This document shows, in pieces, positions 1,387 to 24,376 of a stretch of 47,980 bases of DNA (positions are counted from its first letter, which is position 1; each line of letters begins with the position of its first letter). The stretch spans positions 1 through 47,980 of the forward strand of contig BTTF01000002.1 of the NCBI GenBank assembly GCA_036244995.1. Reading direction: 5' to 3'. The notes under the pieces are model-generated. The model did not search any database. It was given only the letters and a program-made list of their open reading frames with translations, and was not told the origin of the DNA. Made by a program: the position numbers and the translations under genes. The DNA comes from a bacterium. GTDB lineage: Bacteria > Nitrospirota > Thermodesulfovibrionia > Thermodesulfovibrionales > JdFR-85.

Positions 1387-2478
1387 TCAGTTCCTGGACG
1401 TATGGCAAACGTTACACCCGTACAGGGCTGTCGGAAGAAAGGTGCTCTTGTAGTTCCACCGCAGCATTTTATAGTAGGGAGAACCATGAGCCCTGTGACA
1501 GGAGAGACAGATAACCCTGTCGGTTCCCGGGGTTACGGTACTCACAGCAGAAGTCAGCCCGTCAGTCAGTGATGCTGCCGGCCTTCCAACAGGCACTGTA
1601 GCCTTATAAATAGTCGACATGGAAGTAAACTCTCCCGAGTCCGGAATAATCACGTCTGTCGGGTGTCTCAGCCACGGTGAAGCTGAACCGATACCGCTGC
1701 TGCCCCCCAAATGAAACGTCGAATGACATTCAGAGCAGAGCTCACTGATTGTTCCCTTCATATTTGCCCATGAGTCAGTAGTACCCCTCGTGGCATAGGT
1801 TTCAGCCAGATACTCATTGTGGTCCGTAGCACTCACGGTAGCCTGCCAGTCACTGTCCTCTGCACCCTTTATCTTGTAGAGGAACCTGTAACTGGTAGCC
1901 ACAGTGGCCCCCTGCCCGGTCAGTGTAAAACCGGCGCTGTACTTGAGGATCGAGTCATCACCGTGATGCCCCCCGCTGACTGCGTCCCACTCATCAGAAA
2001 AATCCCTGTTGCCGTGACAACCGTTAGACCCGGCACATACCAGGCGGCCGGCAGTACTGAACCCTGTTGTTGAAGGATCATAGGCGCTGTTATATCCAGG
2101 CGGCGTATTGCCGAGTGTAACATCTTCCGAGATTATACCCTGAACATTATGTCCGCTCGAGTCTGCAAGTAAAACATAGGAAAAATTCCCTGCTGCAAGG
2201 TCTGTAGGGTCGGAATGGTAAACCTGGGGAATAGTGTTGAAGATATTAGTGCTGCGATTCTGTGCATGACAGCCTATGCAGTTACCACGGAGCAGTCTCT
2301 GGTTGGGCGTAGCAGAGTTGTCATAATTCATAGGAACTCCATCCTGGCTGTTGTGCATGGTGTGGCAGTTGCTGCATACGCCGCTAACCTCTGCCCTCAC
2401 TTCACCGAACAGCATCAGCACCAGCAAAAGAGTAAAGCAGATTAGTGTATGTATCCTTTTATTCATCAGGTTTTGCAA
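1387..2478 (-). CDS. OmcS-like hexaheme c-type cytochrome, paralog 1
   Basis: 363-aa ORF with a signal peptide ending VRA-EV. Five CxxCH motifs plus one CAGSNGCH. The motif series CSNCHTMHNS, GHNV, WLRHPT, CLSCHRAHGSP and C-terminal CNVCHT parallels OmcS as I remember it (CEGCHTMHNS, GHNI, LRHP, CLSCHRAHAS, CNKCHAKD). An alternative ATG start lies at 2466. Confidence 0.8.
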   Translation of the reverse strand: MQNLMNKRIHTLICFTLLLVLMLFGEVRAEVSGVCSNCHTMHNSQDGVPMNYDNSATPNQRLLRGNCIGCHAQNRSTNIFNTIPQVYHSDPTDLAAGNFSYVLLADSSGHNVQGIISEDVTLGNTPPGYNSAYDPSTTGFSTAGRLVCAGSNGCHGNRDFSDEWDAVSGGHHGDDSILKYSAGFTLTGQGATVATSYRFLYKIKGAEDSDWQATVSATDHNEYLAETYATRGTTDSWANMKGTISELCSECHSTFHLGGSSGIGSASPWLRHPTDVIIPDSGEFTSMSTIYKATVPVGRPAASLTDGLTSAVSTVTPGTDRVICLSCHRAHGSPYYKMLRWNYKSTFLPTALYGCNVCHTSRN

Positions 2479-2726: not shown

Positions 2727-4037
2727 TTATTTTTTATGACACTGGATACAGAGCTGTCTCTTTCTATCAAAGGCAAGCATAAAATCAGCCTTGGCTGAGT
2801 GCATACTATGACATGAAATGCAGGTAATCGGCTTACCGTTACGCGGGTCTATGACTCCGGCGCCTAAAGGATGTGTGATTTCATGCTGTGACTCATGGCA
2901 CCTGGAACAGGTTACAATATCATTTGTTTTGAAATAAAGAGGCTGATTCGAATGTCGCGGCACATGACATGCAAAACACTTCCTGTTCTTGACAGGAGCA
3001 CAACGGATGGACTTTAAAGTCTTCTCCATCAGAAGCGTCCTTTTCTCTGTCTTTTCATGGCAGCCGAGACATACGCCTGCTGCATTTACAGTCAGATTCT
3101 TCCTTTTCGATGCATGAGGATTATGACACATGGTGCAGACATTTTTTGCATCAGCGCCATGAACATCCGCCACCTTGAATGTTGCAAGGACATCTTTATG
3201 GCAACCAAGGCACAAGGCATCACCCTTTCTTTTAGTGGTTATCTTCCCATTGGCAACAAAAGGATTATGGCATTGTTCACAATCCTTTTTCAGAAAGGCT
3301 GTATGACCATAAGGACCAAGGAGACCTTTAGCATCAGAGGCGTGTCCTGAGTGACATTTGGTACAATTCATTGCTTTTGTGACATAAGTTATGGAGACCC
3401 CGCCCGCCTTGCACTGTGGGGCATGATGACAGCTTCGGCACAGCTTGGCAGGGGCGGCAAGCAACTGATTCTCCTCCGAAGATGCATGTGCATCATGGCA
3501 TGATGAACATTTCCCCTCCTTAAAAACTGCGTGTATTTCAGTCTTATCAAGTTGCCCCTTAAGGTCCTCGTGGCAATTCCAGCAGAGTTTCTTTTCTGTG
3601 CTGACTAAAAGGTATTTATTTTTCCCGCTATGTGGGGTGTGACAATCCGTACACACACCTTCTTTAAGGGCTCCGTGCAAACTGGACTTCCGTATAAGAT
3701 TCCTGATACCCTTATGACAACCCAGACAGACGGTATCAACCTTGGCTTTCATCAGGCCCTTCGTATCACTCACATGAGAATTATGACATGAAATGCACAT
3801 ACCCTGTTTAAACGGAAAATGGACATACTTGTCAGACAGGCCTTTCTTCAGCTTTACATGACACTGATAGCAAAGAGCCGGCACACTCGTTTTGAGGTCG
3901 GACCGGGCATAGGCATTGCTACCCAAGGCTGATAATATAAACGTTATCAGCATGAAACATGCAGCGATTAAGGTTAATGCTGAAAATCTTCTGTCATTTA
4001 TGACAGGCTTCACAGTCCCCCCTGGCAAATGGATCAT
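2727..4037 (-). CDS. 16-heme c-type cytochrome (c7-like bi-heme repeats)
   Basis: 436-aa ORF with a signal sequence (RRFSALTLIAACFMLITFILSALGSNAYA) and 16 CxxCH motifs, roughly one per 27 aa, often followed by xxH. Its start overlaps the upstream 26-heme gene by 44 nt. An alternative GTG start lies at 4013. Confidence 0.85.
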   Translation of the reverse strand: MIHLPGGTVKPVINDRRFSALTLIAACFMLITFILSALGSNAYARSDLKTSVPALCYQCHVKLKKGLSDKYVHFPFKQGMCISCHNSHVSDTKGLMKAKVDTVCLGCHKGIRNLIRKSSLHGALKEGVCTDCHTPHSGKNKYLLVSTEKKLCWNCHEDLKGQLDKTEIHAVFKEGKCSSCHDAHASSEENQLLAAPAKLCRSCHHAPQCKAGGVSITYVTKAMNCTKCHSGHASDAKGLLGPYGHTAFLKKDCEQCHNPFVANGKITTKRKGDALCLGCHKDVLATFKVADVHGADAKNVCTMCHNPHASKRKNLTVNAAGVCLGCHEKTEKRTLLMEKTLKSIRCAPVKNRKCFACHVPRHSNQPLYFKTNDIVTCSRCHESQHEITHPLGAGVIDPRNGKPITCISCHSMHSAKADFMLAFDRKRQLCIQCHKK

Positions 4038-5979
4038 GCTTTATTTTTTTAAGCAGCCCCGGTTTCTCTGTTACATGGGGTTCATGACAGCTCAGACACT
4101 GCCTGATTTTAGTTACGGACTTTCCGTCATGCACCTTCAACAATCTCTCCGTGTCTGTTGAATGGCACTTAAGACATAACGCCGGGTCCCTGGCATTCAA
4201 CAAGTCTTTTGATTCAGAGTAATGGGCAGTATGACAACTCAAACAGTCCCCTTTTTCCATATCTATATGCCCCTTTCTGACCCTGGTAGTCACTACACTT
4301 TCATGACATGAAAGACAGAGTTCCTCAGGGCGGCTTAAAAGTTGATACTCAACCTTGGTCCCATGTGGACTATGACAGGCCGTACATTTCCCTTCCTCCA
4401 CTGGCAGGTGCCTGTGTTTGCTGCCCTTTAGCGCGGCCTTTGTGGCCTTATGACACTTGTAACAAAGCTCCGCCATAGGCATGAGAGTGTTTGCCGTGTA
4501 ATCACTGGCATGTGGGGCATGACATGTCAGGCACTCCCGGTCCCTGAATGGAGGATGCATCTCCTTTGCTTTAACCTCCGGCAACATACTGTCATGACAA
4601 TTGAGGCAGAGCTGAGCCGGCGAACTGCTCAGCAAATTCCTGTAATCAGATGCATGCGCCTTATGGCAGGAAAGACATTCTCCTTTATTCACAGGTGTAT
4701 GAATATAGGTCTTAAAAAACTCCTTCTCCTCCTTTTTATGACAGCTATAGCATAACTGAGCCCGCACAGCCTTAAGCATATCAGGAGTATCGGTGCCGTG
4801 GGGATCATGGCATTTTGTGCATTGAAGCTCGGAGAACGGCTTATGCGTGGATATTTCTTTTAACTCCTTTTTCATACCGGTATGACATGTAAGGCATATC
4901 TGCCCTTCAGGTGCATTCAGATAAAAAGGATTTCCGGAGCCGTGCGGGTCGTGACAGACTGTGCAGCCTTCCTCCTTTTTTATGGGTGCATGCAAGTCAG
5001 TCACGTCAATCTTAGGCTTACCGGCATGACACTTTAAACAAAGAGCCTTTTCATCCATAAGGGTAAGCTTCGGATAATCCGAGGCATGCGGACTGTGACA
5101 GTCAAGACATTTCCCCGCGCCCGCGGGAGGATGCCTGTAAGCCGTTTTAAACGCCTTCTCTTCTTTCTTATGACAGATATAGCATAGTTTGGCATCCTGA
5201 GCAATAACACCAAGTGGATCCGGACCTCCCGCGGGTTTATGGCAGGAGCTGCATTGCCCGAGTTCCAGGGGAACATGGACCGATTTCCTGAGCAAGTTGT
5301 CATTTGTTGAACTGTGGGGGTTATGACAGCCTGTACATTTACCCTGTTGAACCGGATAATTCTTATGTGCCTTCCTGAAACTACCCGCCGCAGGGTCATG
5401 ACACGACCGGCAGAGATCCGCTTCATCCTTTATGAGATTATCCTTATATTTAGAGCCATGGGCTGCATGACATACAAGACATCCGTCTGAAAGGGGTTTA
5501 TGGCGATTAGCCCTCATAAAGGGAGCCCTGTCATGACAGGTAAAACACTGCTCACTGCCCTTGTTTTTCAGAAAAAACCTGTTTTCAGATGCATGGGGGT
5601 TATGGCAGGGGACACACTTGCCCTGCTTCAGGGCAGTATGCACATTCGGTAATTTAGCTATATCCGAGGCCATCTTCTGATGACAGGTAAAACAGAGCTT
5701 TCGCTCCTCCCTCTCCCTGAAGGATTTAACAGCGAGCCTTCCATGACGAAGGTGGCATGCCTCACAGTCCCGCTTACTTACCGGAGAATGCACATACTTC
5801 TTCTGAAATTCCTTCAGTTGCTCCTTGTGACAATCCAGGCAGGGTTTTGGTTCAAATCCCTTCCTTCTTGCCATATCTTCAGGAACACATGCATAGATGA
5901 GGCTTAAGATAAAAAACAGAAGGAGGACTTTTAAGATATTCTTTCCTTTGGGGTTAATCATTCCTCTCACAATTGCCAA
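3994..5979 (-). CDS. 26-heme c-type cytochrome
   Basis: 661-aa ORF with an N-terminal hydrophobic segment ending LIYAC, a possible lipobox. I counted 26 CxxCH motifs by hand, about one per 25 aa. The repeated pattern is H-x(8-12)-CxxCH-xPH. TTG start at 5979, alternative ATG at 5961. Confidence 0.85.
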   Translation of the reverse strand: MAIVRGMINPKGKNILKVLLLFFILSLIYACVPEDMARRKGFEPKPCLDCHKEQLKEFQKKYVHSPVSKRDCEACHLRHGRLAVKSFREREERKLCFTCHQKMASDIAKLPNVHTALKQGKCVPCHNPHASENRFFLKNKGSEQCFTCHDRAPFMRANRHKPLSDGCLVCHAAHGSKYKDNLIKDEADLCRSCHDPAAGSFRKAHKNYPVQQGKCTGCHNPHSSTNDNLLRKSVHVPLELGQCSSCHKPAGGPDPLGVIAQDAKLCYICHKKEEKAFKTAYRHPPAGAGKCLDCHSPHASDYPKLTLMDEKALCLKCHAGKPKIDVTDLHAPIKKEEGCTVCHDPHGSGNPFYLNAPEGQICLTCHTGMKKELKEISTHKPFSELQCTKCHDPHGTDTPDMLKAVRAQLCYSCHKKEEKEFFKTYIHTPVNKGECLSCHKAHASDYRNLLSSSPAQLCLNCHDSMLPEVKAKEMHPPFRDRECLTCHAPHASDYTANTLMPMAELCYKCHKATKAALKGSKHRHLPVEEGKCTACHSPHGTKVEYQLLSRPEELCLSCHESVVTTRVRKGHIDMEKGDCLSCHTAHYSESKDLLNARDPALCLKCHSTDTERLLKVHDGKSVTKIRQCLSCHEPHVTEKPGLLKKIKHDPFARGDCEACHK

Positions 5980-6053: not shown

Positions 6054-7805
6054 CTATTTCCGGAGCCTTTCCTCAAGTGACTTTACTGCCTTATCATATA
6101 TCTTTATACGCGCCTTTGCCTTCAACTGTGCTACAAACTTATCCCGGAGGGCATTAAACTGTTCTTTAAAACAGGCCTTGTAAACAGCATCTCTTACTTC
6201 TTCGAACCTCCCGATTTCACCCTTAAGCTTTCCCTGCAAACGGATTATTCTGTAAAATGAACTCACCTTGAATACCGGACTTATCTCTCCCGTCTTCAGT
6301 GCAGCCACAATCTCCCTTACAGGCCCTGGAAATTCCTGCATGGTAAGCCATCCAACCTCTCCACCTTTTGGACCTGCAGAATCAATCGACTTCTTCATAG
6401 CCAGCCATGAAAAATCCGTACCATCCTGCAGATTGCTCAACAGCTCCCTGGCCTCATCCATGGTCTTCACCGTAATCTGCCGGACTCTAAACCTGACAGG
6501 TTCGGCAAAATCTTCCCGGTGTTTCATATAGTAGTCTTTCAAGCTCTTATCTGAAACTTTGATCTTTGGGATAATTACTTTATTGATGAATGCCTGCTTT
6601 AATAACTGGTCCTCATAACGCTCTATCTTTTTCTTTAAATCCGGTGCAGTCTCGTAATGCCGGCTGAGTGCCTCATGGTCAACCACCTTACGGTCAATCC
6701 AGCTATTAAGGATATTTTCCTTTGCTTTCCCCTTGTAAGGCCTGGCCATGGCTGCAAACTCACCTGCAGTAAGGACCGAGCCATTCACCTCTGCCACTGC
6801 CCTTTTATCCTTTGACCAATCAGATGCCTTCTCATCCCCCTTATCCCGGCTTATAGCTGAAAGCAGCTCCTTATTAACCTTAACGGCAGCGTGTTCACGG
6901 AGATATTCCAGGTATTCATCGGCACGCTCTTTTTCCTTCTGTTTCCTGACAATCTTCTCTATCTCTTTTCGGACATTTTTAAGGTCTTCATCAGGCGCCT
7001 CTTTCCTGCTGACCAGCTTTACTATATAATATTTATCCCGTATTTTAAGAATATCACTCAACTCACCGGGGCTGAGACCGGCTATAGCTTCACCAATATA
7101 GGGTGACATGGACCTTCGTGTAAGGACAACATCCACTCCATTTTTCCCGGAATGATGAGTAGAATACTTCCGGGCAAGGTCACTGAAGTCGGCTCCCTTC
7201 TTTAGTTGTCCTGCTATATTACCGGCCTCTTCTTTTGAACTTACCTCAATAATGCCAAGCGAAAACCTCTCATAGTTCTTCTTGTAATAGCCTGGAATAT
7301 CCTTATCCGATATTGAGACCTTACGGGAAATCTCCTCGTCATAAAGCTTCACGACCGACTCCCTCAGAATATACGCCTTAACAGCCTGTTGTACCTGGGG
7401 GTCCTGCTCCATGCCCATACGGCGGGCTTCCTCAATAATCAGCATATCATCTATCAGCTTCTGCACATACTCCGACAGAATCAAGTTCCCTGCAGAGGAG
7501 AGGTCTTCCCTGCGATGGGTTATCTGCAGCGAATACTTCAAATCTTCTTCAGTAATGGGCTCGCCATCAACAACTGCCAATATCTTTTCCCTTGCCGTTA
7601 TCTCCCCCCTCTGCCGAAGGGAGACACAACCACCCACAAAAGCAAACAGCAGGAAGAAAACAACAACAGATAAAATTCCTGCATTTATAGAGGCTGCAGT
7701 CTTTCCCGTATTGGAAGAGCTGCCGGGCGAAATCCCTGACTGTTGACCGGTGACTATGGCCTGCCTTTGCGCCATACTGCTATCTCCGTTTTTTATCATT
7801 TTCAT
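6054..7805 (-). CDS. lipoprotein peptidyl-prolyl cis-trans isomerase, SurA/PpiD-like with two parvulin-type domains
   Basis: 583-aa ORF with a membrane or lipoprotein signal (FAFVGGC). It has a SurA-N-like helical region and two parvulin-like segments (FSLGIIEVSSKEEA...DKYYIVKL and FRVRQITVKT...SSFYRIIRL). Confidence 0.7.
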   Translation of the reverse strand: MKMIKNGDSSMAQRQAIVTGQQSGISPGSSSNTGKTAASINAGILSVVVFFLLFAFVGGCVSLRQRGEITAREKILAVVDGEPITEEDLKYSLQITHRREDLSSAGNLILSEYVQKLIDDMLIIEEARRMGMEQDPQVQQAVKAYILRESVVKLYDEEISRKVSISDKDIPGYYKKNYERFSLGIIEVSSKEEAGNIAGQLKKGADFSDLARKYSTHHSGKNGVDVVLTRRSMSPYIGEAIAGLSPGELSDILKIRDKYYIVKLVSRKEAPDEDLKNVRKEIEKIVRKQKEKERADEYLEYLREHAAVKVNKELLSAISRDKGDEKASDWSKDKRAVAEVNGSVLTAGEFAAMARPYKGKAKENILNSWIDRKVVDHEALSRHYETAPDLKKKIERYEDQLLKQAFINKVIIPKIKVSDKSLKDYYMKHREDFAEPVRFRVRQITVKTMDEARELLSNLQDGTDFSWLAMKKSIDSAGPKGGEVGWLTMQEFPGPVREIVAALKTGEISPVFKVSSFYRIIRLQGKLKGEIGRFEEVRDAVYKACFKEQFNALRDKFVAQLKAKARIKIYDKAVKSLEERLRK

Positions 7806-7815
7806 TACCTGTACG

Positions 7816-8985
7816 TTACCGTGACAAGGGCTCTCCTGTTTTTTTCACCTCGGAAGATGGCACTGAAACGGCAGGAACCGTTGCCCCGCATACTTTTTCA
7901 GCCCTTTTTACTAATTTTGAGACTATCCTGGAAGCCACTTTATCCACAGATCTTATCCTTCCCCAGTCAAGGACAATTATATCGTCATCACCCCTTAGTT
8001 GACAGCTCTCGCACCACAAGACCCTGTTTTTACGGGCATCTACTATTCTGGCGCTAATAGAGACCTCAGGTGGAGAGGAAGCATTTAATCCGTCAGAGTA
8101 AAGCTCCACAGTCCCGACTAAAAAACCATCCACCCCCAGGGAATCAGAAAGGGCCTTCATATCCCTGAAATCCAGTTCTCCCCTCTCCCTGACCCTTAAA
8201 TCCACTACCGATCTTCTGACTTCTCCGTATTCCACCGGTTCAAAAACAGGATTCTTAAATAATTCCACTAAAAACATGTAAGTAGCTATCATACCTGCAT
8301 CTCTGACTCCACTGTTATTCCGAAACGGCATCACAGCAATTCTGTACGTATCTTTTGTCTCTTTTGTCTCTTTTCGGGACGGCATGACGGTGAAAGAGGC
8401 AAGCAATCTGTCCGCAACCCTGGGGAGCAGGTTATCCATGTTTTTTATTCTGCGCAAACCGAGGATTGCCGTAAAATCATCTCCTGTAGCAGAGGCATTA
8501 TCAGCCCAGAGGATAAGGCCGGTGGATGAATCAATCAGGCGGGCTGAAAAACCAACCCCTGGATTTTCTCCTCGTGAAAACAGGTTAACAGAACCGAGCA
8601 AAACAGCCTTTACCTTCAATTCCGCTCCTATCTTCCTGGCCATATCCCTTGAAATGTATCCGGTAGCCCTGATCCTCTCTTTAAGCAGAAACCTGTTGAG
8701 GCTATCCTCATCCACTACGTCAAACCCCTTGCCCTCCAGCCGGGTTCTCAACACCGGCATAACGTATCTCAGGGCATCCCTGTCCTCGCTTAGATTCACA
8801 AAAGGAAAGAGGGCTATTCTTTCCTTCAAAACTCTCCCCTCTCCACGGGACGATTGGACTGCATAGCAAACATTGGTAATAAAGAAGAGCGAGAAGATAA
8901 CGATTAGAAAAGAAGACGCCAATCGGTCAGGGCTACGAAGCACGTTTCGTCTCACGGCCACGTTGTTCAGTTCTTTTTTAGTCAT
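7816..8985 (-). CDS. secreted protein with two tandem CsgG/TolB-N/LpoB-like alpha/beta modules
   Basis: 389-aa ORF with an N-terminal hydrophobic signal. It has two internal repeats beginning RIALFPFVNLS and RIAVMPFRNNSG. Both are similar to the single module in the next two genes. Confidence 0.6.
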   Translation of the reverse strand: MTKKELNNVAVRRNVLRSPDRLASSFLIVIFSLFFITNVCYAVQSSRGEGRVLKERIALFPFVNLSEDRDALRYVMPVLRTRLEGKGFDVVDEDSLNRFLLKERIRATGYISRDMARKIGAELKVKAVLLGSVNLFSRGENPGVGFSARLIDSSTGLILWADNASATGDDFTAILGLRRIKNMDNLLPRVADRLLASFTVMPSRKETKETKDTYRIAVMPFRNNSGVRDAGMIATYMFLVELFKNPVFEPVEYGEVRRSVVDLRVRERGELDFRDMKALSDSLGVDGFLVGTVELYSDGLNASSPPEVSISARIVDARKNRVLWCESCQLRGDDDIIVLDWGRIRSVDKVASRIVSKLVKRAEKVCGATVPAVSVPSSEVKKTGEPLSR

Positions 8986-9032: not shown

Positions 9033-9638
9033 TCAGTATTTAGCAAGTGTCCGGATAGCATCTTTTACTACCCTCAACAGTGTCTCACTCATAGTCTCTG
9101 TCCTTGCACCAAAATGTCTGGCCATAAACCCGCCCCCAACACCCGTGCTTGTAACCGACCATATAATGCTCCCTGAACCTGTATCTGCCATCATAAGGGT
9201 AATGGTTACATTTGGTGCGGAAATACTTCCCATCCTGACCATTCCGAACTGCTCAACAGAGCCGAAAATAAGCGCCTGCACGCCAAGGGCAGTCCCCAAA
9301 GCCTTTATCTGTTCAGTGTTCAGGGATGAGACAGACTTAATCCCCAGACGGTCAATGGCAGCCTTTACCTCTCCGGGAATCACTACATCAACAAGACCCG
9401 AGGCCAGCAGTTCACTGATAACCACCTGCCTTACAGCCTCAGCGGCAAATCTCTCACTGGTCAGATTATTCAAAGGCAATACCGCTACCCGTTTTATAAA
9501 ACCGAAATCCACATCCTGACGGACATGAAATGAAGGCATGCTGCTACGACATCCTGCGCCAAGGAGCAATAGACAGAGCATACCTGTCAGGGCATATTTC
9601 TTCAGCAAGTCCATATCGTTTCTCCTTTTATTCTTCAT
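9033..9638 (-). CDS. lipoprotein with a CsgG/TolB-N/DUF799-like module
   Basis: 201-aa ORF with lipobox LLGAGC. The module reads VAVLPLNNLT...ALIFGSVEQFG...TITLMMADTGSGSIIWS. Confidence 0.65.
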   Translation of the reverse strand: MKNKRRNDMDLLKKYALTGMLCLLLLGAGCRSSMPSFHVRQDVDFGFIKRVAVLPLNNLTSERFAAEAVRQVVISELLASGLVDVVIPGEVKAAIDRLGIKSVSSLNTEQIKALGTALGVQALIFGSVEQFGMVRMGSISAPNVTITLMMADTGSGSIIWSVTSTGVGGGFMARHFGARTETMSETLLRVVKDAIRTLAKY

Positions 9639-9686: not shown

Positions 9687-10283
9687 CTAAAATAATGCAT
9701 CAATGGTTTCTTTTACAACCTTCCCGGCAGTTTCACTCAATGTAATGCCCTCTGTACCAAAGTGTCTGGTCCAGAAACCGGGACCGCCTGCTGTGTTCCA
9801 GGCAGACCATATAATGTTGCCGGTGGACGTATCAAGCATCATCAGGTGGATTGATACCTCCGGATAAGAGGTTGTAATCCCCCGGCTTATCCCAAAGGCC
9901 CCAACCGAGCCCATCATTACTGCCTTTACGTTCAGTCTTTCCCCTATCTTCCGTATATCCTCAATCGTTATACCTCCAAGGGATCTGATCTTTAATTCCC
10001 TCAGTACCCTTGTTACCTCACCAGGCTCGATAACATCGACTCCCCTGGTAAGGAGCTCCGATATAACCATCCCCCGGATCTTTTCACCGGCATATTCATC
10101 CGTGGTAAGGGTTTCCAGCGGCAACACCGCTATCTTCCTTATACTGCGAATATCAACATCCGGCCGGATATATTGTCTCGGGACAGCACAGCCCCACATG
10201 AAAATCAGTAAAAGAGACAGGGCCGGAAGCAGAGGCCCGGGAAGCATCCTGTTTTGCTTTTTTTCCTTAACTCTATCAATCAT
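9687..10283 (-). CDS. lipoprotein with a CsgG/TolB-N/DUF799-like module (paralog of 9033..9638)
   Basis: 198-aa ORF with lipobox FMWGC. The module reads IAVLPLETLT...AVMMGSVGAFG...SIHLMMLDTSTGNIIWS and is clearly alignable to the previous gene. Confidence 0.65.
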   Translation of the reverse strand: MIDRVKEKKQNRMLPGPLLPALSLLLIFMWGCAVPRQYIRPDVDIRSIRKIAVLPLETLTTDEYAGEKIRGMVISELLTRGVDVIEPGEVTRVLRELKIRSLGGITIEDIRKIGERLNVKAVMMGSVGAFGISRGITTSYPEVSIHLMMLDTSTGNIIWSAWNTAGGPGFWTRHFGTEGITLSETAGKVVKETIDALF

Positions 10284-10462: not shown

Positions 10463-12736
10463 TCAGAATCTGCAATTCAAATTCGCACCAATCATATAGG
10501 TTTCCGTCTTTTTCTCCCTGACACTCTGTGTATAGTTATACGTAAGGCGGATATCAATAAACTTTGTAATATACCATAACCCGTAGCCACTGAGCGAGTC
10601 GTCAGTTGAAGAGTCCGGTTCAGAACGGGCATGCTGATAGTTTAAGTTCACTTTAAGGACAGGCACGGGAAGCCAATCAATTAAAACTCCCTTGGAAGTC
10701 GTTGTATTGCCGTCAACATCCGAAACCCTGAAACTTCCGGAAAGATTGATAAACCGGCCCGGTCGGTATGTAATTATTGTGCCACCCTCATTTGAATCCG
10801 AAGATGTAATGTCTGACGATTGCCGGTTAAAGCCATATATGAGATTTGCCGTCAGCTTCCGGGTAAGAAATGCATCAAGTGAGCCACGGATAAAACGGGA
10901 AATAAGGTGAGAACCTGATGTATAGGATTTCGAGTCCGTGTATCCAATGTCGGTAATCATGTTGACGCCCCTGTAAAGTCTCGAACCTGCACTTAACAGC
11001 AATGAATTATTCAGGGACTGTTTCTCACCAAAGCTGAATCTGTCACTCCTGATTAATGCAAGGGTTGTATCGAGGGTTGGCAAAGGAGTAGAGTTAAAGG
11101 AGAGGGAATAAATATTGGAGCTGATATCCGTCACCTCTTTATTGTCAAATGCCTCGTTTCTCTGAAAACGGAAAGTAGTAGTAAGCAATCTGTGGGTTAC
11201 CCATGCTGAGGTAATACTGTAGGTCCTTGTTATATTACTAATCAGCCCTTCCGCCTCACCTGCTGTGGATTTACTGAAAACATTTACAAAAATACCGGCT
11301 ATAGAGTCCGGAAGGGACACAGTGTTCTGGTCTGTCCTGTCAATATAGCAATTAAAGAGAAGGCTTAACCTTTTTACAGGCATCAGCTTCACACTGAGGT
11401 TTAACCCCTGAGTAAAAACCCTCGTCACCTTCGTAACCTTGCCTGTGTCGGGGACCAAGTCCATACCGTAAGCCTCGATTTCTGTTACCAGAACATCACT
11501 TAAGCCGGACTTGACCTGATTGATCACCTTGAAATAGCGTGCATTCTGACCGGCAGAGAACCTTATCTCATACCGGTATACACTATTAACTATATCCGTA
11601 GATACCACCACACTCTGGATAGCTACTTCCGTCCAGTCCCCGCTATTATAATCACTCCGGTAGGCCCTCCAGTTATACGGAGTTATAAGGCCGATATCAG
11701 CACTGACATCTTTATCTACATAAATATATAATCTGTCTACCTCCTCCGATGATGACAAAACCTCTATACCTATATTATTGTACACCTGGCCGTTACTACC
11801 GAGGTTGATTCCGGTTGACGTCTGATAATCCTTGTCAATCAGGGACGGCTTGTTATTCAATATATCCACTTCGCTTTTATTTGCATCTATGGCATAGAGC
11901 CCACTAAGCGGTGTTCGCTCGAAAAGCACGTTGCCCGTCTGGGTCACAAACTGCTGCCTCCTGTTCCGCACATAGTTCCCCTGATAGACTGCAGACACCC
12001 TGGTCCTGCCCCGCTGGAAGGAACGGGAGTAACCGATTCTGTACAGGCCGTTAAAATTGTCGCCGATTGATTTAGCCAGTATATCAGTCGGTGCCTCGTC
12101 CACCGTATGCCTGTAAGTAAGGCTGTAGGAGAGGTCTAAATCCCTGAACGAGTATTGATAAATGGAACTTCCGGAATATCCGGTATATCCGGTACTGGTT
12201 TTGTCTGTTTCATTAACAAGGAAGTGTGTGTAGTCCCTCTTTTTGTCAAACTGCAGGAAGAGGGAAGGCAACTCCAGGGGTTTTACATTAAGACGGGAAT
12301 AATAATATTCAGAAGTTTCCCTGCTGTTGTCTCTCAGGTGTGCAGTTGACCACTGCTCCTGACGGCGATAACCTGTACTCAGGTCATAGACGGAGTTCCG
12401 GAGGAACAGGTCTATTGCCGGCTCAACCGCCCTCTTGTAAGCGGTGGTAGTCACACCGGCAGGGTCTGTAAGGTCGGAATCCAGCAAACCTGACCTGAAA
12501 TAGAGTTGATAGGAAAGCATCGGCGTGATTGATTTATCCAGACGCAGATAGAAATTTCGATAAAATGTCTTGTTGACTGATATTTGTTTGTCATCCTCAA
12601 ACTGCTTCGTAGTATTATGATTCAACTCTGCCCATCCCTTGAGGCCTTCGGCAAAAGCAGGGCCGCCAAGACAGGCACTCAGTAATGCTATTGCGATAAT
12701 TTTCCATAATATCTTCCGCATAAGCTCGTCAGTCAA
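10463..12736 (-). CDS. large outer-membrane beta-barrel protein with an inserted discoidin (F5/8 type C)-like domain
   Basis: 757-aa ORF with a signal peptide (IIAIALLSACLGGPAFA-EG). The sequence alternates in an aromatic-rich beta-strand pattern and ends in a C-terminal Phe (NLNCRF). Residues about 285-424 end in ARYFKV...VTEIEAYG, a typical discoidin C-terminus. Alternative ATG start at 12721. Confidence 0.7.
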   Translation of the reverse strand: MTDELMRKILWKIIAIALLSACLGGPAFAEGLKGWAELNHNTTKQFEDDKQISVNKTFYRNFYLRLDKSITPMLSYQLYFRSGLLDSDLTDPAGVTTTAYKRAVEPAIDLFLRNSVYDLSTGYRRQEQWSTAHLRDNSRETSEYYYSRLNVKPLELPSLFLQFDKKRDYTHFLVNETDKTSTGYTGYSGSSIYQYSFRDLDLSYSLTYRHTVDEAPTDILAKSIGDNFNGLYRIGYSRSFQRGRTRVSAVYQGNYVRNRRQQFVTQTGNVLFERTPLSGLYAIDANKSEVDILNNKPSLIDKDYQTSTGINLGSNGQVYNNIGIEVLSSSEEVDRLYIYVDKDVSADIGLITPYNWRAYRSDYNSGDWTEVAIQSVVVSTDIVNSVYRYEIRFSAGQNARYFKVINQVKSGLSDVLVTEIEAYGMDLVPDTGKVTKVTRVFTQGLNLSVKLMPVKRLSLLFNCYIDRTDQNTVSLPDSIAGIFVNVFSKSTAGEAEGLISNITRTYSITSAWVTHRLLTTTFRFQRNEAFDNKEVTDISSNIYSLSFNSTPLPTLDTTLALIRSDRFSFGEKQSLNNSLLLSAGSRLYRGVNMITDIGYTDSKSYTSGSHLISRFIRGSLDAFLTRKLTANLIYGFNRQSSDITSSDSNEGGTIITYRPGRFINLSGSFRVSDVDGNTTTSKGVLIDWLPVPVLKVNLNYQHARSEPDSSTDDSLSGYGLWYITKFIDIRLTYNYTQSVREKKTETYMIGANLNCRF

Positions 12737-12884: not shown

Positions 12885-14480
12885 CTAATACGGAAACATT
12901 GCTATGCCATAGGGATTTTTACCCACAGGGATAACCCTTTCTACTTCTCTTGCAGTTCTATCTACTACAGAGACATTATCGGAACCCCGGTTAACTACAT
13001 AGAGATTTCTGACCTCAGGGTCCATAATCATGGACCTCGGAGAAGTTCCTACAGGTATGGTACCTATTACCAGGGGCATTACCGTACCCACAGTATAGTA
13101 ATCCTCCAAAAGGGGTCTGATAATCATTATCTCACCAGGAACCTCCCTCAACAGATAAAGCCTGTCAAAGGACGGGTCAACAACAACTCCTGTGACAGAG
13201 GTACCCACATCACTGATATCGCTGACAGCTCCCTTCTCATCCCCTTTAATAACCTTTATGATATCTATGACCGAGAGCCTGTCGGAACCATAATTAGCCA
13301 CATAGACCTTTCCCCTCTGATAGTCTATAGCGAGCGCCACCGGGCTCCATTCTACACTTAACCTGGCAACCTCTTCAAGCCTGCCGCTCTGCAGGTCCAT
13401 CCTCAGTACCGAGACATCCCTGGAATCCTTATTAACTACATACACATTAAAATATCTTTCACGGTAATTTCTTAAGATATTAACATCCTCAAGACTGAGA
13501 AACCGCGACGCCGTGACAGTCTCTGCCGGTGGGTCTACTGCCACTGCTATCGGACCATTCCCGACATCTACCTTATCTATCTCCTGATAGGTTGAAGCAT
13601 CAACAACGGATACCGTATCAGAGGCATAATCGGTCACGAAGATAAGGTCCTCCCCTGAGGGTCCCCTGGCTACCGCTATACCCTCCGGGGCACTACCAAA
13701 CCGGATCGGTATCTCCTGTTCCACTTTATTAGTGGTAGGATCAATCACTGAAATGCTGTTAGAGCCTGAGTTTGCCACATAAACCCTCAAACGGTCCCTC
13801 CTCAAACCTGCAGCAATACCTCTGGGTCTCCTCCCCACCCTTACAGTTGCTACAACCTCACCTAATTGTCTGTTAATCACGGAGACATTATTCGAATCCT
13901 CATTGGTAACATAAACAAGAAGACTGCTGAGCTCCGGGACCTGCCCCTTAACAGCAAAAACAGGCTTAAACAGGTATTTATCGGCAACAGAAGCATCTGC
14001 ATCCCAAGTCAGGAACAATGATGTGTCCTGGTCTTTATATACGGTAATATTTACGGCTACCTCTATTCCGCCGGAAGGCAAGGCTAAACGTGCCATCCTG
14101 CCTTTTCTCCTGATCAATGCCCGTTTAACAACAAGCCGGAGTTTTTTATATCTGCCCTCCGGTAGACTTTTTTCAGCTAAAAGTATCTGACGGCCCTTCA
14201 CGGCAATGGAATTTATATTCAGAGGGGTGCTCGTTATCTCTCTATAGGTACCGTCTTCCGCCATAATATCGATTGCGGTCAGATCAAATGAAATATCAAC
14301 AGAAGTATCATCTGCACCCTTCAAAAAAAGGTCAATCTGTCCCCGGGAATGCCCGGAGACATTCCGCTGTCCCTTAATGGCCGTGCATCCCGTTAAAAGG
14401 AAAAACGAGCAAAAGACCAGGAACATGAAACTCCTCGCTAAAACTGCTGTATCTTTATAAAGATGTCCATTGTTCGACAT
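12885..14480 (-). CDS. lipoprotein with a DUF4382-like N-domain and a YVTN-family beta-propeller
   Basis: Lipobox LLTGC. It carries repeated YVTN motifs: VYVANSGSNSISVID, IFVTDYASDTVSVVD, VYVVNKDSRDVSVL, VYVANYGSDRLSVID and LYVVNRGSDNVSVVD. I chose the ATG at 14480 (GGGAG upstream, 32-aa signal). The ORF is open up to 14555. Confidence 0.75.
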   Translation of the reverse strand: MSNNGHLYKDTAVLARSFMFLVFCSFFLLTGCTAIKGQRNVSGHSRGQIDLFLKGADDTSVDISFDLTAIDIMAEDGTYREITSTPLNINSIAVKGRQILLAEKSLPEGRYKKLRLVVKRALIRRKGRMARLALPSGGIEVAVNITVYKDQDTSLFLTWDADASVADKYLFKPVFAVKGQVPELSSLLVYVTNEDSNNVSVINRQLGEVVATVRVGRRPRGIAAGLRRDRLRVYVANSGSNSISVIDPTTNKVEQEIPIRFGSAPEGIAVARGPSGEDLIFVTDYASDTVSVVDASTYQEIDKVDVGNGPIAVAVDPPAETVTASRFLSLEDVNILRNYRERYFNVYVVNKDSRDVSVLRMDLQSGRLEEVARLSVEWSPVALAIDYQRGKVYVANYGSDRLSVIDIIKVIKGDEKGAVSDISDVGTSVTGVVVDPSFDRLYLLREVPGEIMIIRPLLEDYYTVGTVMPLVIGTIPVGTSPRSMIMDPEVRNLYVVNRGSDNVSVVDRTAREVERVIPVGKNPYGIAMFPY

Positions 14481-14588
14481 AAACTCCCGGGTTTCGACAA
14501 AATGTTTTTTTGTTATATTTGCAATCAACCTAATTTGCTGATAATTGCTGTACATCTTTCGCCTTATCTTAGTTTTTTTCAGACCTCC

Positions 14589-15524
14589 TTACTCCTTAGG
14601 CTGATACACTTCCACCCTGTTATTAAAGGTATCGGCAATCAGTATCCTGCCTGTTGAGTCGATTGATATATCCCTGGGGTACTGAAACCATCCTGCTGAC
14701 AGGCCAAGACCCCCAAACTCGAACAGATAGTTACCGTTCCTGTCATACGCAGAGACAGTATGACGCATATAATCCACCACATACATCCTTCCGTTTCGAT
14801 TATCTACTCCAACAGCCATCGGACGGCTCAGCTTGCCTGTACTCCCTCCCTTACGGCCAAATTTGAAAAGAAACTTCCTGTTCTTATCATAGACATATAT
14901 ATGTCCCATTTCCTCGCTGACAAGATATATCCTGCCTGCCTTATCCAGGGTCACATCGTTTAATTTCACCTTTCTCCCCTCTTCTTCAGGTGATATTATC
15001 TCCAGGAGACGGCCTTGATTACTCAGGACCAGAACACCGGGGAAATAGGATCCCGCCACATAGATATTACCCGCTTTATCCATGGCCAGGCGATACGGGT
15101 TAAACGACCCGGATCCCTCAAAACCCTTCAGATAAATATCACGCACCCACTTAAGACATGCGTTGAAAACAGAAATTCTGTGTCTGGGGTTATCTTTTGT
15201 GGCAGACTGAACAACGTAAAGATTACCTTCAGCATCCAGAGTCAACCCCTGGGGTGATTCAATGCCGTTTCTTTTATCAAGGGTAAACAGGGGGAAAAAA
15301 TCCGATGTATATATGATAATCCTGCTTTTCCCATCAATAACGTAAACCTCTTTACTGACCGGATCCGCCCACACAAAGGAAGGGAAAAACAACCCGTCTT
15401 CTTCTGCTTCCACTATGCTGTATGCATGGACTACAGGAACATCCTGCAACTGGGCCTCTATCTTGCGCTGGACGAGAAGAAAGGGCATTACAAAGGAAAT
15501 AATTATAACAAGGATACGGAACAT
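14589..15524 (-). CDS. NHL-repeat beta-propeller protein, secreted
   Basis: 311-aa ORF with AGGAGG upstream of the ATG and a signal peptide. NHL-type repeats include GNLYVVQS, GNIYVAGS, GRIYLVSEEMGHIYVYD, GRMYVVDYMRHTVSAYD and GRILIADTFNNRVEVY. Confidence 0.75.
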   Translation of the reverse strand: MFRILVIIISFVMPFLLVQRKIEAQLQDVPVVHAYSIVEAEEDGLFFPSFVWADPVSKEVYVIDGKSRIIIYTSDFFPLFTLDKRNGIESPQGLTLDAEGNLYVVQSATKDNPRHRISVFNACLKWVRDIYLKGFEGSGSFNPYRLAMDKAGNIYVAGSYFPGVLVLSNQGRLLEIISPEEEGRKVKLNDVTLDKAGRIYLVSEEMGHIYVYDKNRKFLFKFGRKGGSTGKLSRPMAVGVDNRNGRMYVVDYMRHTVSAYDRNGNYLFEFGGLGLSAGWFQYPRDISIDSTGRILIADTFNNRVEVYQPKE

Positions 15525-15709: not shown

Positions 15710-16792
15710 TTAGTAGGCATCTTTCTGTGTATGACACCTCAAACAACCTGTACCGGAGCTCAGACTCGTCTGATAGCTGAACCGCAGACTATCGGGATAA
15801 GGAGAACCATGGGGCCTGTGACAGGAAAGGCATATGACCCTGTCGGTGCCGGCGGTAACAGTCCCTATTGCTGCAGTCAACCCGTCAGCCAGTGATGCCG
15901 CAGGCCTTCCAACCGGAGTCTCATCACTATACGTAGTTGATACAGAAGCAAACTCCCCTGAGGCCGGGATTACCACATCTGTCGGGTGTCTCAGCCACGG
16001 TGATGCAGAACCGATACCGCTGGTTCCACCTATATGGAACGTGGAATGACATTCAGAGCACAGCTCACTGATTGTTCCCTTCATATTTGCCCATGTGTCA
16101 GTAGTACCCCTCGTGGCATAGGTTTCAGCCAGATACTCGTTGTGGTCCGTAGCAGTCACGGTATTCTGCCAGTCACTGTCCTCTGCACCCTTTATCTTGT
16201 AGAGAAACCTGTAACTGGTTGCCACGCTGGCCCCCTGCCCGGTCAATGTAAAACCGCTGCCGTACTTGAGGATCGAGTCATCACCGTGATGTCCCCCGCT
16301 GACTGCGGTCCACTGATCAGATGAATTCCTGTTGCCGTGACAACCGTTAGACCCGGCGCACACCAGACGGCTGGCAGTATTAAACCCTGTTGTTGAGGGG
16401 TCATAGGCGCTGTTATATCCAGGCGGAGTATTGCCGAGTGCGGCATCTGCCGAGGTCACTATACCCTCAACATTATGACCATAGGAGTCCCCGTTGTTCA
16501 CAACATACGAAAAATTCCCTCCCGCTAGGTCTGTAGAGGCAGAATGGTAGACCTGGGGTATGGAGTTGACGATATTGCTGGAGGTGTTCTGTGCATGACA
16601 GCCTACACAGCTACCCCGGAGCAGTTTCCCGTTAGGAGTAGTCGAGTGATCATACGTCATAGGAGCGCCATCCTGGCTGTTATGCATGGTGTGACAGCTT
16701 GAACAAACACCGGATACTTTGGCATCAGCATAAGAATAAATAAAAATTGCAGACAGAAATACTAAAAGCATTGTCATCAATGTTTTTTTCAT
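15710..16792 (-). CDS. OmcS-like hexaheme c-type cytochrome, paralog 2
   Basis: 360-aa ORF with GGGAGG 9 nt upstream of the ATG and a signal peptide ending YADA-KV. It has the same motif series as paralog 1 (CSSCHTMHNS, GHNV, CAGSNGCH, WLRHPT, CLSCHRPHGSP, CLRCHT). The central 460 nt are about 92% identical to paralog 1. Confidence 0.8.
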   Translation of the reverse strand: MKKTLMTMLLVFLSAIFIYSYADAKVSGVCSSCHTMHNSQDGAPMTYDHSTTPNGKLLRGSCVGCHAQNTSSNIVNSIPQVYHSASTDLAGGNFSYVVNNGDSYGHNVEGIVTSADAALGNTPPGYNSAYDPSTTGFNTASRLVCAGSNGCHGNRNSSDQWTAVSGGHHGDDSILKYGSGFTLTGQGASVATSYRFLYKIKGAEDSDWQNTVTATDHNEYLAETYATRGTTDTWANMKGTISELCSECHSTFHIGGTSGIGSASPWLRHPTDVVIPASGEFASVSTTYSDETPVGRPAASLADGLTAAIGTVTAGTDRVICLSCHRPHGSPYPDSLRFSYQTSLSSGTGCLRCHTQKDAY

Positions 16793-17188: not shown

Positions 17189-18280
17189 CTATTGCCCCTT
17201 CTGCGTATGACACGTAAGACATCCGTCACCACGGCTCAACATATTACTGCTGTAATCCCACCTCAACATATCCTGATAGGGACTCGCATGTGCCCTGTGA
17301 CACGAGGGACACATGATTATACTATCCATATCCACAATATCTTCTCTGCCTGTAGGGTTTTTATAGGCAACAGGCGCCTGGAGGCTATAGATAGTATAGC
17401 CCTGAAACTCAGAGCCTGCATACCCCCCGCGTACACTGCTGAAGGCAATGTCAGTGGGGTGCCTGAGCCAGACAGTCTCACCAACCTCTGTCTCACCACC
17501 AAGATCCGGATTTGGATGAAACTTGCCATGGCATTCACCACAAAGGTAACTTATGGTATCCATAGTGCTGTGACTGGTGTCACCCTTATAGCCGTTATGG
17601 TCATCAGTGGTGGCCTGATATTCCCAGTCCTTCTGTTCCTTGCCTTTTATCCCGTAAAGAAAGCGATAACTCCTGCCCACAGTTGAACCGTCAATCACAC
17701 TGTCATCCGCATGATGTGCTCCGTAAATGGACTTGAACGGCTTCTCTACAGTCCTGTTTCCATGACAGCCCCACGTGCCCGCACAGGTAAGCTGCTGTTG
17801 CTGTGGCCAGTATGAAGGCCCGATGCCTCCAGGAATCACAACGTTTCCCATAAACCCGGGTGGTGCATCCATGGGTGGAGGCTCCTGAAGTGAAATCCCC
17901 AAAACGTTGTGCCCCTTTGAATAATCAGGGTTAAAGTCGTCCGAGACATAATAAAAGTTTCCAGCAGCAAGGTCTCCGTTATCCATGTTATGGATTACCT
18001 GCGGGATTCTTGTCTTCCCCATAATTATAATATTCCTGGTACCGGAAGGATCCTGGGCATGACAACCGAGACAACCACCCTTTGTCAGGACAGGATTGGG
18101 TTTAACGGCGTGCATGGTGTGGCAATTCTTGCACTTCCCCTTCACCCTGGCATCAATATTTGAGGGAAAAGACAGGACAAGGAACATAGAGAACAGAGTA
18201 AAAAACACGGAGCAAAGAGCATGGAAATGCTTCCACTTAAAACCTCGCTCCATGCCCTTTGCTCTCAGCGCTTTGCCCAT
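17189..18280 (-). CDS. OmcS-like hexaheme c-type cytochrome, paralog 3 (divergent)
   Basis: The motifs are CKNCHTMH, CLGCH, GHNV, CAGTWGCH, CGECH, WLRHPT, CPSCHRAHASP and CLTCHT. The ORF is open to 18316 (TTG). I chose the ATG at 18280, 2 nt after the upstream stop. The ATG at 18253 is also plausible. Confidence 0.75.
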   Translation of the reverse strand: MGKALRAKGMERGFKWKHFHALCSVFFTLFSMFLVLSFPSNIDARVKGKCKNCHTMHAVKPNPVLTKGGCLGCHAQDPSGTRNIIIMGKTRIPQVIHNMDNGDLAAGNFYYVSDDFNPDYSKGHNVLGISLQEPPPMDAPPGFMGNVVIPGGIGPSYWPQQQQLTCAGTWGCHGNRTVEKPFKSIYGAHHADDSVIDGSTVGRSYRFLYGIKGKEQKDWEYQATTDDHNGYKGDTSHSTMDTISYLCGECHGKFHPNPDLGGETEVGETVWLRHPTDIAFSSVRGGYAGSEFQGYTIYSLQAPVAYKNPTGREDIVDMDSIIMCPSCHRAHASPYQDMLRWDYSSNMLSRGDGCLTCHTQKGQ

Positions 18281-18282
18281 TG

Positions 18283-19341
18283 CTATTCGCCCTTGCCCGT
18301 ATGACATATTAAACAACCGCTGCTGCCTTCTTCCCCGGCCACAATGGAATCATAATCCCACCTCAGCATAAACTCATTAGGGCTACCGTGTGCCACATGG
18401 CATGAAAGGCACATGACAATGTCTGTACCGGGTCTCACCTCCTCACTGGAAACGGCAGGGACTGCCGGCCTCGCCACCGGTGCATCAAGGCTGTAAATCC
18501 TTATGCCGGGTTTATCGGGTGGAGGCGGCACATCGGGGTTATAGCTCAGATATTCCCCCCTTTTCGGCAGGACAATACCTGTGGGATGCCTGAACCATGG
18601 ACTTGCCCTGCCTATCTTGTCCCTGCGGTAAAGACCGCTATGGCAGTCTGCGCAGAAGCGGTTGATTGAGGATGTATACTCGTTATGTTTCTTTGAAGAA
18701 GCAGTGTGGCCCCAATCCTTATCCTCCAGCCCGGTAACCCCCTTTACTTTAGCGGTTCTTTTCAGAAACCGGTAACTCCTGGCCGTAGTGCTGCCGTCAA
18801 CAGGAAAATCGTCTGAATGATGTGCCCCCAGAATAGCAGCAAAGGGATTTTCAATATTCCTGTCACCGTGACAGCCATTGGAACCTGCACAAGCCAAGGG
18901 CTTTTTATCGTTGAATCCAATAGTGGAGGGATCGGAAAACCTGTCATACCCCGGAGGCATAAAACCGTTTTTTGCATCCGGTGAGGCAATACCATCAACA
19001 TTATGCCCTCTCCTGTCACCAAAAACCTTAACATAATAGAAATTGCCGCCTGATAAAGGCCTGTCCGGGTCTACCCTGCTGTAGACAACAGGCACCCTGG
19101 CACCACCCAGCATTTTTATGGTATTACTGTCGGCATTCGAGTGACAACTTACACACATGGAGTTCTGAAGGACATATCTTAACGGTTTACCGGGAGCCGC
19201 TGCCTTCATCATTCCGGGATAGAGACTATGACAGACCTCACAATCCCCTACGACCACGGCCTCACCGTCATTTGGAAACCGGAGGACCAGCAACATACAG
19301 AAAAAGATAAGGACAGTTACAATAATTACCTGTTTTTTCAT
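18283..19341 (-). CDS. OmcS-like hexaheme c-type cytochrome, paralog 4 (most divergent)
   Basis: The motifs are CEVCHSLY (no second His), CVSCH, GHNV, CAGSNGCH, CADCH, WFRHPT, CLSCHVAHGSP and CLICHT. I chose the ATG at 19341 (MKKQVIIVTVL... signal). The ORF is open to 19392. Confidence 0.75.
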   Translation of the reverse strand: MKKQVIIVTVLIFFCMLLVLRFPNDGEAVVVGDCEVCHSLYPGMMKAAAPGKPLRYVLQNSMCVSCHSNADSNTIKMLGGARVPVVYSRVDPDRPLSGGNFYYVKVFGDRRGHNVDGIASPDAKNGFMPPGYDRFSDPSTIGFNDKKPLACAGSNGCHGDRNIENPFAAILGAHHSDDFPVDGSTTARSYRFLKRTAKVKGVTGLEDKDWGHTASSKKHNEYTSSINRFCADCHSGLYRRDKIGRASPWFRHPTGIVLPKRGEYLSYNPDVPPPPDKPGIRIYSLDAPVARPAVPAVSSEEVRPGTDIVMCLSCHVAHGSPNEFMLRWDYDSIVAGEEGSSGCLICHTGKGE

Positions 19342-19460
19342 AATCAGTATTCGGGTTGATTTCTGCTCTTTAAACCATAACTCAATTATCAATTAAAAAT
19401 AAAAGCAAAAACAGTGCCAACATTTAAGGAGTTGTAAATAACAACCGGGATTCTCTCTTG

Positions 19461-24247: not shown

Positions 24248-24376
24248 CAAGTACCCTTCTGTTTAGGATAAACTGCCTGAAAACGAAAAGACAAGGCATG
24301 GAAAATTAATGGTAAAATTGCTTTTTATCACCTCTTCAAAATAAAATAAGTGACTCTTTCTCTCAGGGGGTTAATA

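Follow-up and report, generated by a model that had tools for sequence, protein, structure and literature searches.

The cytochrome OmcS of Geobacter sulfurreducens (GSU2504; PDB 6EF8 and 6NEF) is a hexahaem nanowire cytochrome. Its haems are stacked in the order of their binding motifs, and 12 of its 12 axial ligands are histidines, one of which is provided by the neighbouring subunit (PMC6584659): His16, in the N-terminal CxxCH[TS]MH string, serves as ligand to haem 5 of the following subunit. Among natural haem c sites, a cysteine spacing wider than two residues is found in haem 1 of OmcZ (CX14CH), which a solved nanowire structure shows to be bound via a loop of 14 residues between the cysteines (PMC9473688) and whose loop lies at a subunit interface, and in haem 8 of MccA (CX15CH/CX17CH). 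Shorter expansions, CX3CH and CX4CH, occur in bis-His multihaem cytochromes such as tetrahaem cytochrome c3 and are listed as known in a 2024 survey, which comprises CXCK, CX2CK, CX3CH, CX4CH, CX11CH, CX15CH and CX17CH only (PMC11492766). Here I describe a CX5CH site at the place of the third haem motif in four OmcS-like cytochromes encoded by a 47,980-nucleotide stretch of contig BTTF01000002.1, from a Nitrospirota-like host (hereafter the window). Its five-residue spacer, much shorter than the OmcZ and MccA loops and distinguished from CX3CH and CX4CH by a fixed x-G-x-x-G pattern, lies outside the published list. The earlier note on this DNA, made from the sequence alone, knew of no CX5CH haem site; in agreement with that statement and with the survey list, queries of the searchable literature with CX5CH, CXXXXXCH and spelled-out variants returned no haem-related paper, and a 2026 preprint counts generic CXnCH patterns and does not single out a CX5CH site.

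The four paralogues are encoded on the minus strand. Paralogue A (1387-2478, 363 aa), paralogue B (15710-16792, 360 aa), paralogue C (17189-18316, 375 aa as listed, with an uncertain TTG start) and paralogue D (18283-19392, 369 aa) each contain exactly five CxxCH motifs and a single C-x5-C-H (four of four open reading frames, ORFs). The odd site reads CAGSNGCH in A (2014-2037, residues 148-155), B (16337-16360, residues 145-152) and D (18868-18891, residues 168-175), and CAGTWGCH, the commonest motif type among close relatives, in C (17762-17785, residues 178-185). It is directly followed by GNR or GDR and, 15 residues on, by HHGDD, HHADD or HHSDD (1954-1968 in A, where it reads HHGDD; 16277-16291 in B; 17702-17716 in C; 18808-18822 in D). 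Translation of the minus strand therefore reproduces what the earlier note had read off this DNA: the four sites with their coordinates, five CxxCH motifs plus a sixth odd site per protein, and the G(N/D)R and HH(G/A/S)DD strings that follow. Its figure of 35-40% identity between paralogues holds for five of the six pairs (36-38% by BLASTP) but not for A and B, which are 73% identical. All four CX5CH sites fall in one alignment column. Pfam and NCBIfam give only generic multihaem signatures for these proteins, whose N-terminus is a hydrophobic stretch that closes with A-x-A immediately ahead of haem motif 1 and is modelled by AlphaFold2 (AF2) as a helix over residues 2-24. The six-frame translation of the window holds ten C-x5-C-H strings in all; the six that are not paralogue sites are scattered, and their sequences are unrelated to the paralogue sites and to one another. 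The four other multihaem cytochromes of the same gene cluster, with 8, 16, 26 and 19 CxxCH motifs, contain no CX3-6CH motif. The unusual spacing is therefore a property of this one protein family and does not reflect a general tendency of the organism.

OmcS (6EF8) was the sole significant solved relative of the paralogues: a HMMER profile built from the four sequences matched it with E=5.5e-11 over OmcS residues 7-352. Alignment by hhalign of a 124-sequence family alignment with a 51-sequence alignment of the OmcS clade gave a probability of 99.7% and E=1.2e-25 over 291 aligned columns. The homology extends over nearly the full length, at an identity of only about 25%, with about 340 mature residues in the family against 407 in OmcS. 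HMMER, MAFFT and hhalign agree in placing the first cysteine of CX5CH on C140 (mature numbering), the first cysteine of the third OmcS motif, CSSCH, and so bear out the placement of the site given in the earlier note. The five CxxCH motifs of the paralogues align with OmcS motifs 1, 2, 4, 5 and 6, and CX5CH takes the third position, so that the number and order of the six haem sites are those of OmcS while the spacing at site 3 differs. Family and OmcS also share the upstream GHN, the haem-4 motif with a histidine four residues later, the RHP and the downstream CHRAH, as well as the N-terminal CxxCH[TS]MH; the equivalent of His16 (CHTMH) is kept by paralogues A, B and C and by 335 of the 356 family proteins that could be scored. 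A location of the segment outside haem 3, the outcome of such an alignment that could have overturned the placement, was not found by any of the three methods and is ruled out.

The two groups are nevertheless distinct at the site itself. Haem 3 reads C[SIT]SCHDPHG in the OmcS clade and CAGxxGCHG in the family. HHxDD, including its histidine pair, and DHN are invariant in the family and lacking in OmcS, whereas the family lacks the DPH histidine of OmcS. CX5CH was absent from the 120 closest relatives of OmcS, all of which carry C[SIT]SCHDPHG at haem 3. GSU2501 was considered as a possible member and rejected, as its haem-3 site reads CVACHDPHG. Since neither the closest relatives of OmcS nor its GSU2501-like neighbour has CX5CH, the sequences place the CX5CH proteins in a distinct and large sister clade of OmcS.

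The motif is strongly conserved in this clade. It was present in 374 of the 387 family proteins collected, with the consensus C-[A>S>G]-G-x-[Y/N/W]-G-C-H; glycine occupied spacer position 2 in 371 of 376 motifs and spacer position 5 in 374 of 376. Each of the best 120 matches of the family profile had exactly one CX5CH (120/120). A library of representatives of 50%-identity clusters yielded 1381 clusters at E <= 0.001 and 500 at E <= 1e-30, and 137 of the best 150 representatives carried the motif, as did 117 of 117 proteins from a third search, seeded with Desulfuromonadales members. In the 124-sequence alignment C148, G150, G153, C154, H155 and G156 (paralogue A numbering) are invariant, against a mean column identity of 36%. 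A scan of one genome per species returned 190 relatives; those listed are all from metagenome-assembled genomes (MAGs). Carriers include Nitrospirota/Thermodesulfovibrionia, Desulfobulbia, Desulfobacterales, Desulfuromonadales, Ca. Desulfofervidaceae, Thermodesulfobacteriota, Thermosulfidibacter, Aquificales and others, and typical members occur in four cultured isolates, Thermosulfuriphilus ammonigenes, Thermodesulfatator autotrophicus, T. atlanticus and Malonomonas rubra. The argument that conservation implies function, which had first been made from four paralogues, is considerably strengthened by these numbers, and conservation together with the independence of the datasets rules out a chance match or a sequencing error.

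Family members were also seen in MAGs labelled Chloroflexota, Sulfurovum, Spirochaetota, Heimdallarchaeota, Aquificales and Nitrospinota (loci L039, L041, L042, L046, L048 and L070); either the cluster has been transferred horizontally or these bins are contaminated.

The exceptions are instructive as to the nature of the site. Thirteen of the best 150 representatives have another arrangement at the same aligned position: CX2CH in P0182, P0226, P0238, P0255 and P0267, CX3CH in P0263, CX4CH in P0244 and P0184, CX6CH in P0159, CX10CH in P0186 and P0266, CX12CH in P0214, and an apparent deletion in P0205, a cluster mate of which has a CxxCH at or near the site. Several of these spacers recur with identical sequence in independent datasets. 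At every spacer length (2, 3, 4, 5, 6, 10 and 12) a histidine directly follows the second cysteine. Because this Cys-His dyad is kept while the spacer drifts, canonical CxxCH included, the site behaves, as far as the sequences can tell, like a haem c site and not like a disulfide or a degenerate relic. Nine of the exceptional proteins (P0182, P0226, P0238, P0255, P0267, P0244, P0263, P0266 and P0159) form a subfamily with seven motifs, in which an extra CxxCH stands just before HHxDD and the haem-3 site is CX2, CX3, CX4, CX6 or CX10 instead of CX5.

From the homology to OmcS, the haem-3 position, the conservation, the variation of the spacer and the gene context, I infer that CX5CH is a genuine haem-3 attachment loop with a glycine-rich five-residue spacer, belonging to six-haem OmcS-type subunits that are matured by the general machinery; the probability of this reading is put at roughly 0.7. 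The paralogues would be exported via a putative N-terminal signal peptide. C148 and C154 of paralogue A would be joined by thioether bonds to the vinyl groups of the haem, and His155 would be the proximal iron ligand, as at any CxxCH site, with the A-G-x-x-G spacer and its two near-invariant glycines forming a tight turn (predicted to be a beta-hairpin) where CxxCH has a helical one. The paralogues would then be six-haem and not five-haem proteins, with an unbroken haem chain. In paralogues A-C the His16 equivalent would cross-link subunits through haem 5, and the proteins would polymerise into extracellular filaments, which is probable because the surrounding genes make up a block that is homologous to, and collinear with, the Geobacter omcS assembly block (see below). 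The haem itself would be attached by the general maturation system of the host, System II in these Nitrospirota, with no dedicated lyase.

Several further points fit this proposal. Since haem stacking in OmcS follows motif order, haem 3 lies mid-wire and its loss would break the chain in the middle. Since OmcZ haem 1 uses an expanded loop, such loops do exist in nanowire cytochromes. Five non-motif histidines are common to the family and OmcS (OmcS H16, H110, H247, H257 and H335), and the family has in addition three invariant histidines of its own (H171, H172 and H220) and six motif histidines, a number that, judged from the alignments, is enough for six bis-His haems; the histidine pair of HHxDD is a candidate distal ligand.

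Other observations weigh against it. The hhalign alignment is ungapped across the site, so that Cys154-His155 of the family stand on Pro146-His147 of OmcS, and the distance from the first cysteine to a conserved arginine differs by one residue between family and OmcS. On alignment grounds, a Cys-His dyad shifted by three residues would explain this as well as a loop insertion does. His147, the invariant DPH histidine of OmcS, is probably a distal ligand, so that His155 could descend from a distal and not from a proximal ligand. Structure prediction counts on both sides. In favour of the loop, the family AF2 model, obtained from a deep alignment (mean predicted local distance difference test score, pLDDT, 70.8; predicted template modelling score 0.73; pLDDT 85-88 over residues 140-190), folds the motif into a hairpin whose strands (146-149 and 153-155) are joined by a turn at G-S-N, whereas the same procedure applied to OmcS gave a helical turn at CSSCH and reproduced 6EF8 (template modelling scores 0.84/0.89). 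Neither model contains haem. In the modelled hairpin the two cysteines are cross-strand neighbours, a geometry that would suit a disulfide as well as haem attachment. A Foldseek search of the PDB with the haem-less family model returned zero matches, OmcS included, so that the similarity of fold to OmcS rests on the sequence profiles; as the models lack haem, this search is judged uninformative on homology, for which the profiles are decisive.

A competing reading is that haem 3 has been lost, the cysteines forming a structural or redox-active disulfide across the beta-hairpin and His155, as the descendant of OmcS His147, serving only as distal ligand to a neighbouring haem in a five-haem protein. 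The cross-strand placement of C148 and C154 and the alignment of His155 with His147 are what one would expect in that case, and published counts do call relatives pentahaem (PMC11492766, PMC9539880), although from CxxCH pattern matching alone. A disulfide, however, imposes no rule that a histidine should directly follow the second cysteine, as is seen at every spacer; in some members a plain CxxCH occupies the site; a linear chain of six haems (PMC6584659) would be left with a gap mid-way; and the invariant non-motif histidines exceed the need of five haems. Haem loss is therefore regarded as unlikely, though it is the strongest competitor. The earlier note had left the choice between an expanded attachment loop and haem loss open, and the balance now tilts towards the former.

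A somewhat less probable proposal, which is a variant of the favoured one, retains the haem but has it attached only by a dedicated lyase paralogue encoded elsewhere in the genome, on the model of CcsA1 or NrfI/NrfEFG. Unusual motifs do have such enzymes: CX15CH and CXXCK use dedicated lyases (CcsA1 for MccA; NrfI/NrfEFG). CX3CH and CX4CH sites, on the other hand, are, so far as is known, matured by the general systems. With engineered CXnCH motifs, the Ccm system of Escherichia coli reportedly achieved haem attachment as far as n=6, with heterogeneous products at n>4 and thus imperfectly at n=5-6 (Allen et al. 2009); should this hold, a CX5CH site may require additional help to mature cleanly, which counts against attachment by general machinery and for a special lyase.

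The gene content around the family gives this proposal little help. No Ccs or Ccm gene was found in the 48-kb window, where a scan for the WWD motif was also empty, and a dedicated lyase inside the cluster, like the one that serves MccA, is ruled out by the lack of any linked maturation gene there. Among 79 related loci, a gene with a WWD motif occurred within 10 kb in six and was missing from the other 73. By Pfam, three of the six have ResB and CcsA (System II; L012, L014 and L031), one a partial CcsA-like ORF at the locus end (L033) and two a full ccmF-E-C-B operon (System I; L027 and L075). These genes look like general machinery, being a ResB+CcsA pair or a complete ccmFECB operon, and no specialised lyase paralogue was a conserved neighbour among the 79 related loci (window plus 10-kb flanks). 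Since the loci hold ccsBA or ccmFECB, the family occurs in hosts of both systems; and because both systems occur and no specialised paralogue is a conserved neighbour, the sequence evidence argues for maturation of CX5CH by general machinery. A spacer that drifts between 2 and 12 residues is likewise hard to square with a lyase tuned to one spacing. The dedicated lyase suggested by the earlier note thus finds no support in the window or in the 10-kb flanks of its relatives. The arrangement in two loci speaks in its favour: a resB-ccsA pair follows the cytochrome cluster directly and on the same strand in L012 (13107-15016) and L014 (13719-15920), which resembles mccA-ccsA1.

Slightly more doubtful still is the possibility that the cysteine pair does not, or does not always, carry haem and forms a redox-switchable thiol/disulfide hairpin at the haem-3 place, with His155 ligating a neighbouring haem, acting as a gap or a gate in the haem chain; if true, the protein would be a wire of five haems, and the redox state of the disulfide would govern its conduction. 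Finally, a non-haem metal site of, for instance, Cys2His2 type, made up of Cys-x5-Cys-His and HHxDD, is very improbable: C148, C154, H155, H171, H172 and D175 show little or no variation and are close in sequence, and OmcS does bind one non-haem metal, tentatively Mg2+ (PMC6584659), but CX5CH is homologous to a haem motif, an adjacent Cys-His is the hallmark of haem c, and HHxDD is kept together with a canonical CxxCH or with an extra CxxCH before HH and is hence independent of the spacer.

If haem is bound as favoured here, CX5CH is a natural haem c attachment motif missing from current lists, and pattern-based haem counts are one too low across more than 1,300 clusters (E <= 0.001; motif checked in the best 150). 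This bears on published work. Pentaheme sequences occur among the OmcS homologues of the 2024 survey (PMC11492766), and OmcS-like extracellular cytochromes of Ca. Thermodesulfobacterium torris and Ca. Desulfofervidus auxilii (HS1_000170, a relative of the Ca. T. torris protein), bacterial partners of anaerobic methanotrophic archaea (ANME), have been counted as pentaheme and show high expression while methane is being oxidised; these papers report five haems, with no mention of a CX5CH site (PMC9539880; PMC10553843). Ca. Desulfofervidaceae MAGs carry members of the CX5CH family (L051, L069 and L074), and HS1_000170 and the Ca. T. torris cytochrome appear by extension to belong to it. With haem bound, the pentaheme OmcS-like cytochromes of the partners in methane-oxidising consortia and of many vent and subsurface bacteria would become six-haem proteins, and a continuous chain would change the models of their conductivity. 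Attachment at spacers of 2-12 residues by either system would further imply that Systems I and II tolerate more diverse substrates than commonly supposed, which would be useful for engineering nanowire cytochromes. The presence of CX5CH in four cultured isolates makes the question directly testable.

The gene context links the paralogues to the OmcS system. Positions 7-20924 of the window form a single minus-strand gene cluster, in the order 19-haem cytochrome, paralogues D, C and B, NHL propeller, YncE-like propeller, 757-aa protein, three lipoproteins, peptidyl-prolyl isomerase (PPIase), 26-haem cytochrome, 16-haem cytochrome, paralogue A and eight-haem cytochrome. The Geobacter omcS locus has the order omcS, omcT, a spermine-synthase-like gene, a GSU2501-like cytochrome, a YncE-like protein, a 718-aa protein and an LpoB-like lipoprotein, and its last three genes, together with the gene upstream of omcS, have homologues in the window (BLASTP E 6e-14 to 1e-31). 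The NHL-repeat propeller (14589-15524) is homologous to the 315-aa gene upstream of omcS (E=7e-17), the YncE-like beta-propeller lipoprotein (12885-14555) to the gene that follows the GSU2501-like one (E=3e-28), and the 757-aa protein (10463-12736), which has no Pfam match and is conserved in 33 related loci, to the 718-aa protein (E=1e-31). Of the three LpoB/GNA1162-like lipoproteins (7816-8985, 9033-9638 and 9687-10283), the last two are homologous to the Geobacter lipoprotein. A SurA-like PPIase (6054-7805), conserved in 38 related loci, and a 26-haem cytochrome (3994-5979, 26 CxxCH, all canonical) come next; they presumably match GSU2496 and GSU2495, which lie beyond the end of the Geobacter locus that was retrieved.

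The two blocks are thus alike in accessory genes and collinear, each with an OmcS-like cytochrome, a YncE-like protein, a protein of about 720 aa and LpoB-like lipoproteins; the window differs in having four OmcS-like paralogues, all with CX5CH, and a Nitrospirota-like host. In a passage of PMC12977616 the block from GSU2501 to GSU2493 is described, after Shen et al. 2025, as the 'widespread and ancient' OmcS nanowire assembly machinery, and it is cited there as linked to the maturation and secretion of OmcS nanowires. Because the window block is homologous to and collinear with that block, the window is read from its genes as encoding an OmcS nanowire system of Nitrospirota type whose subunits carry CX5CH, and by analogy the paralogues probably form extracellular filaments. 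The same neighbours, both assembly-block genes and large multihaem cytochromes, recur in 26-48 of the 79 related loci.

One paralogue departs from the others at its N-terminus. Paralogue D lacks the equivalent of OmcS His16, its haem-1 motif, CEVCHSLYP, having SLYP where [TS]MH is expected, and it heads the tandem array in which paralogues C and B, with CHTMH, follow. Such xLYP paralogues head tandem arrays in eight loci (the window, L002, L009, L036, L062, L067, L070 and L078), with His16-type paralogues coming after them. This suggests a distinct role for the xLYP proteins, for example as a capping, priming or anchoring subunit unable to donate the inter-subunit ligand.

The remaining cytochromes of the cluster call for brief mention. 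Paralogue A is placed between the genes of the 16-haem cytochrome (2727-4037, 16 CxxCH, all canonical) and the eight-haem cytochrome (7-1329, 440 aa), an arrangement also found in L012 and L031. The eight-haem cytochrome recurs in 27 related loci and has an HHLDD string resembling the HHxDD of the family. Its similarity to GSU2501 and to the family's C-terminal part is weak (E about 1e-5 to 6e-4), and it could be a remote relative. As listed, the 26-haem and 16-haem ORFs overlap by 44 nt (3994-4037) and paralogues C and D by 34 nt (18283-18316), and the listed TTG/ATG starts of these overlapping ORFs are probably too far upstream. Outside the cluster the window holds housekeeping genes, namely hisD, aromatic amino-acid genes, RACo and flagellar rod and ring genes; the RACo-type corrinoid reductive activase (24350-26254) and a DUF6866 gene (23183-24250), which lie between the cytochrome cluster and the housekeeping genes, are unrelated to the CX5CH finding. 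At the head of the cluster, the 19-haem cytochrome (19461-20924) contains three near-identical internal repeats, MFTKxxVHPPVAAGMCTTCHDPHSSxNEKLLVLKPPxLCFMCHD, whose similarity suggests a recent internal duplication.

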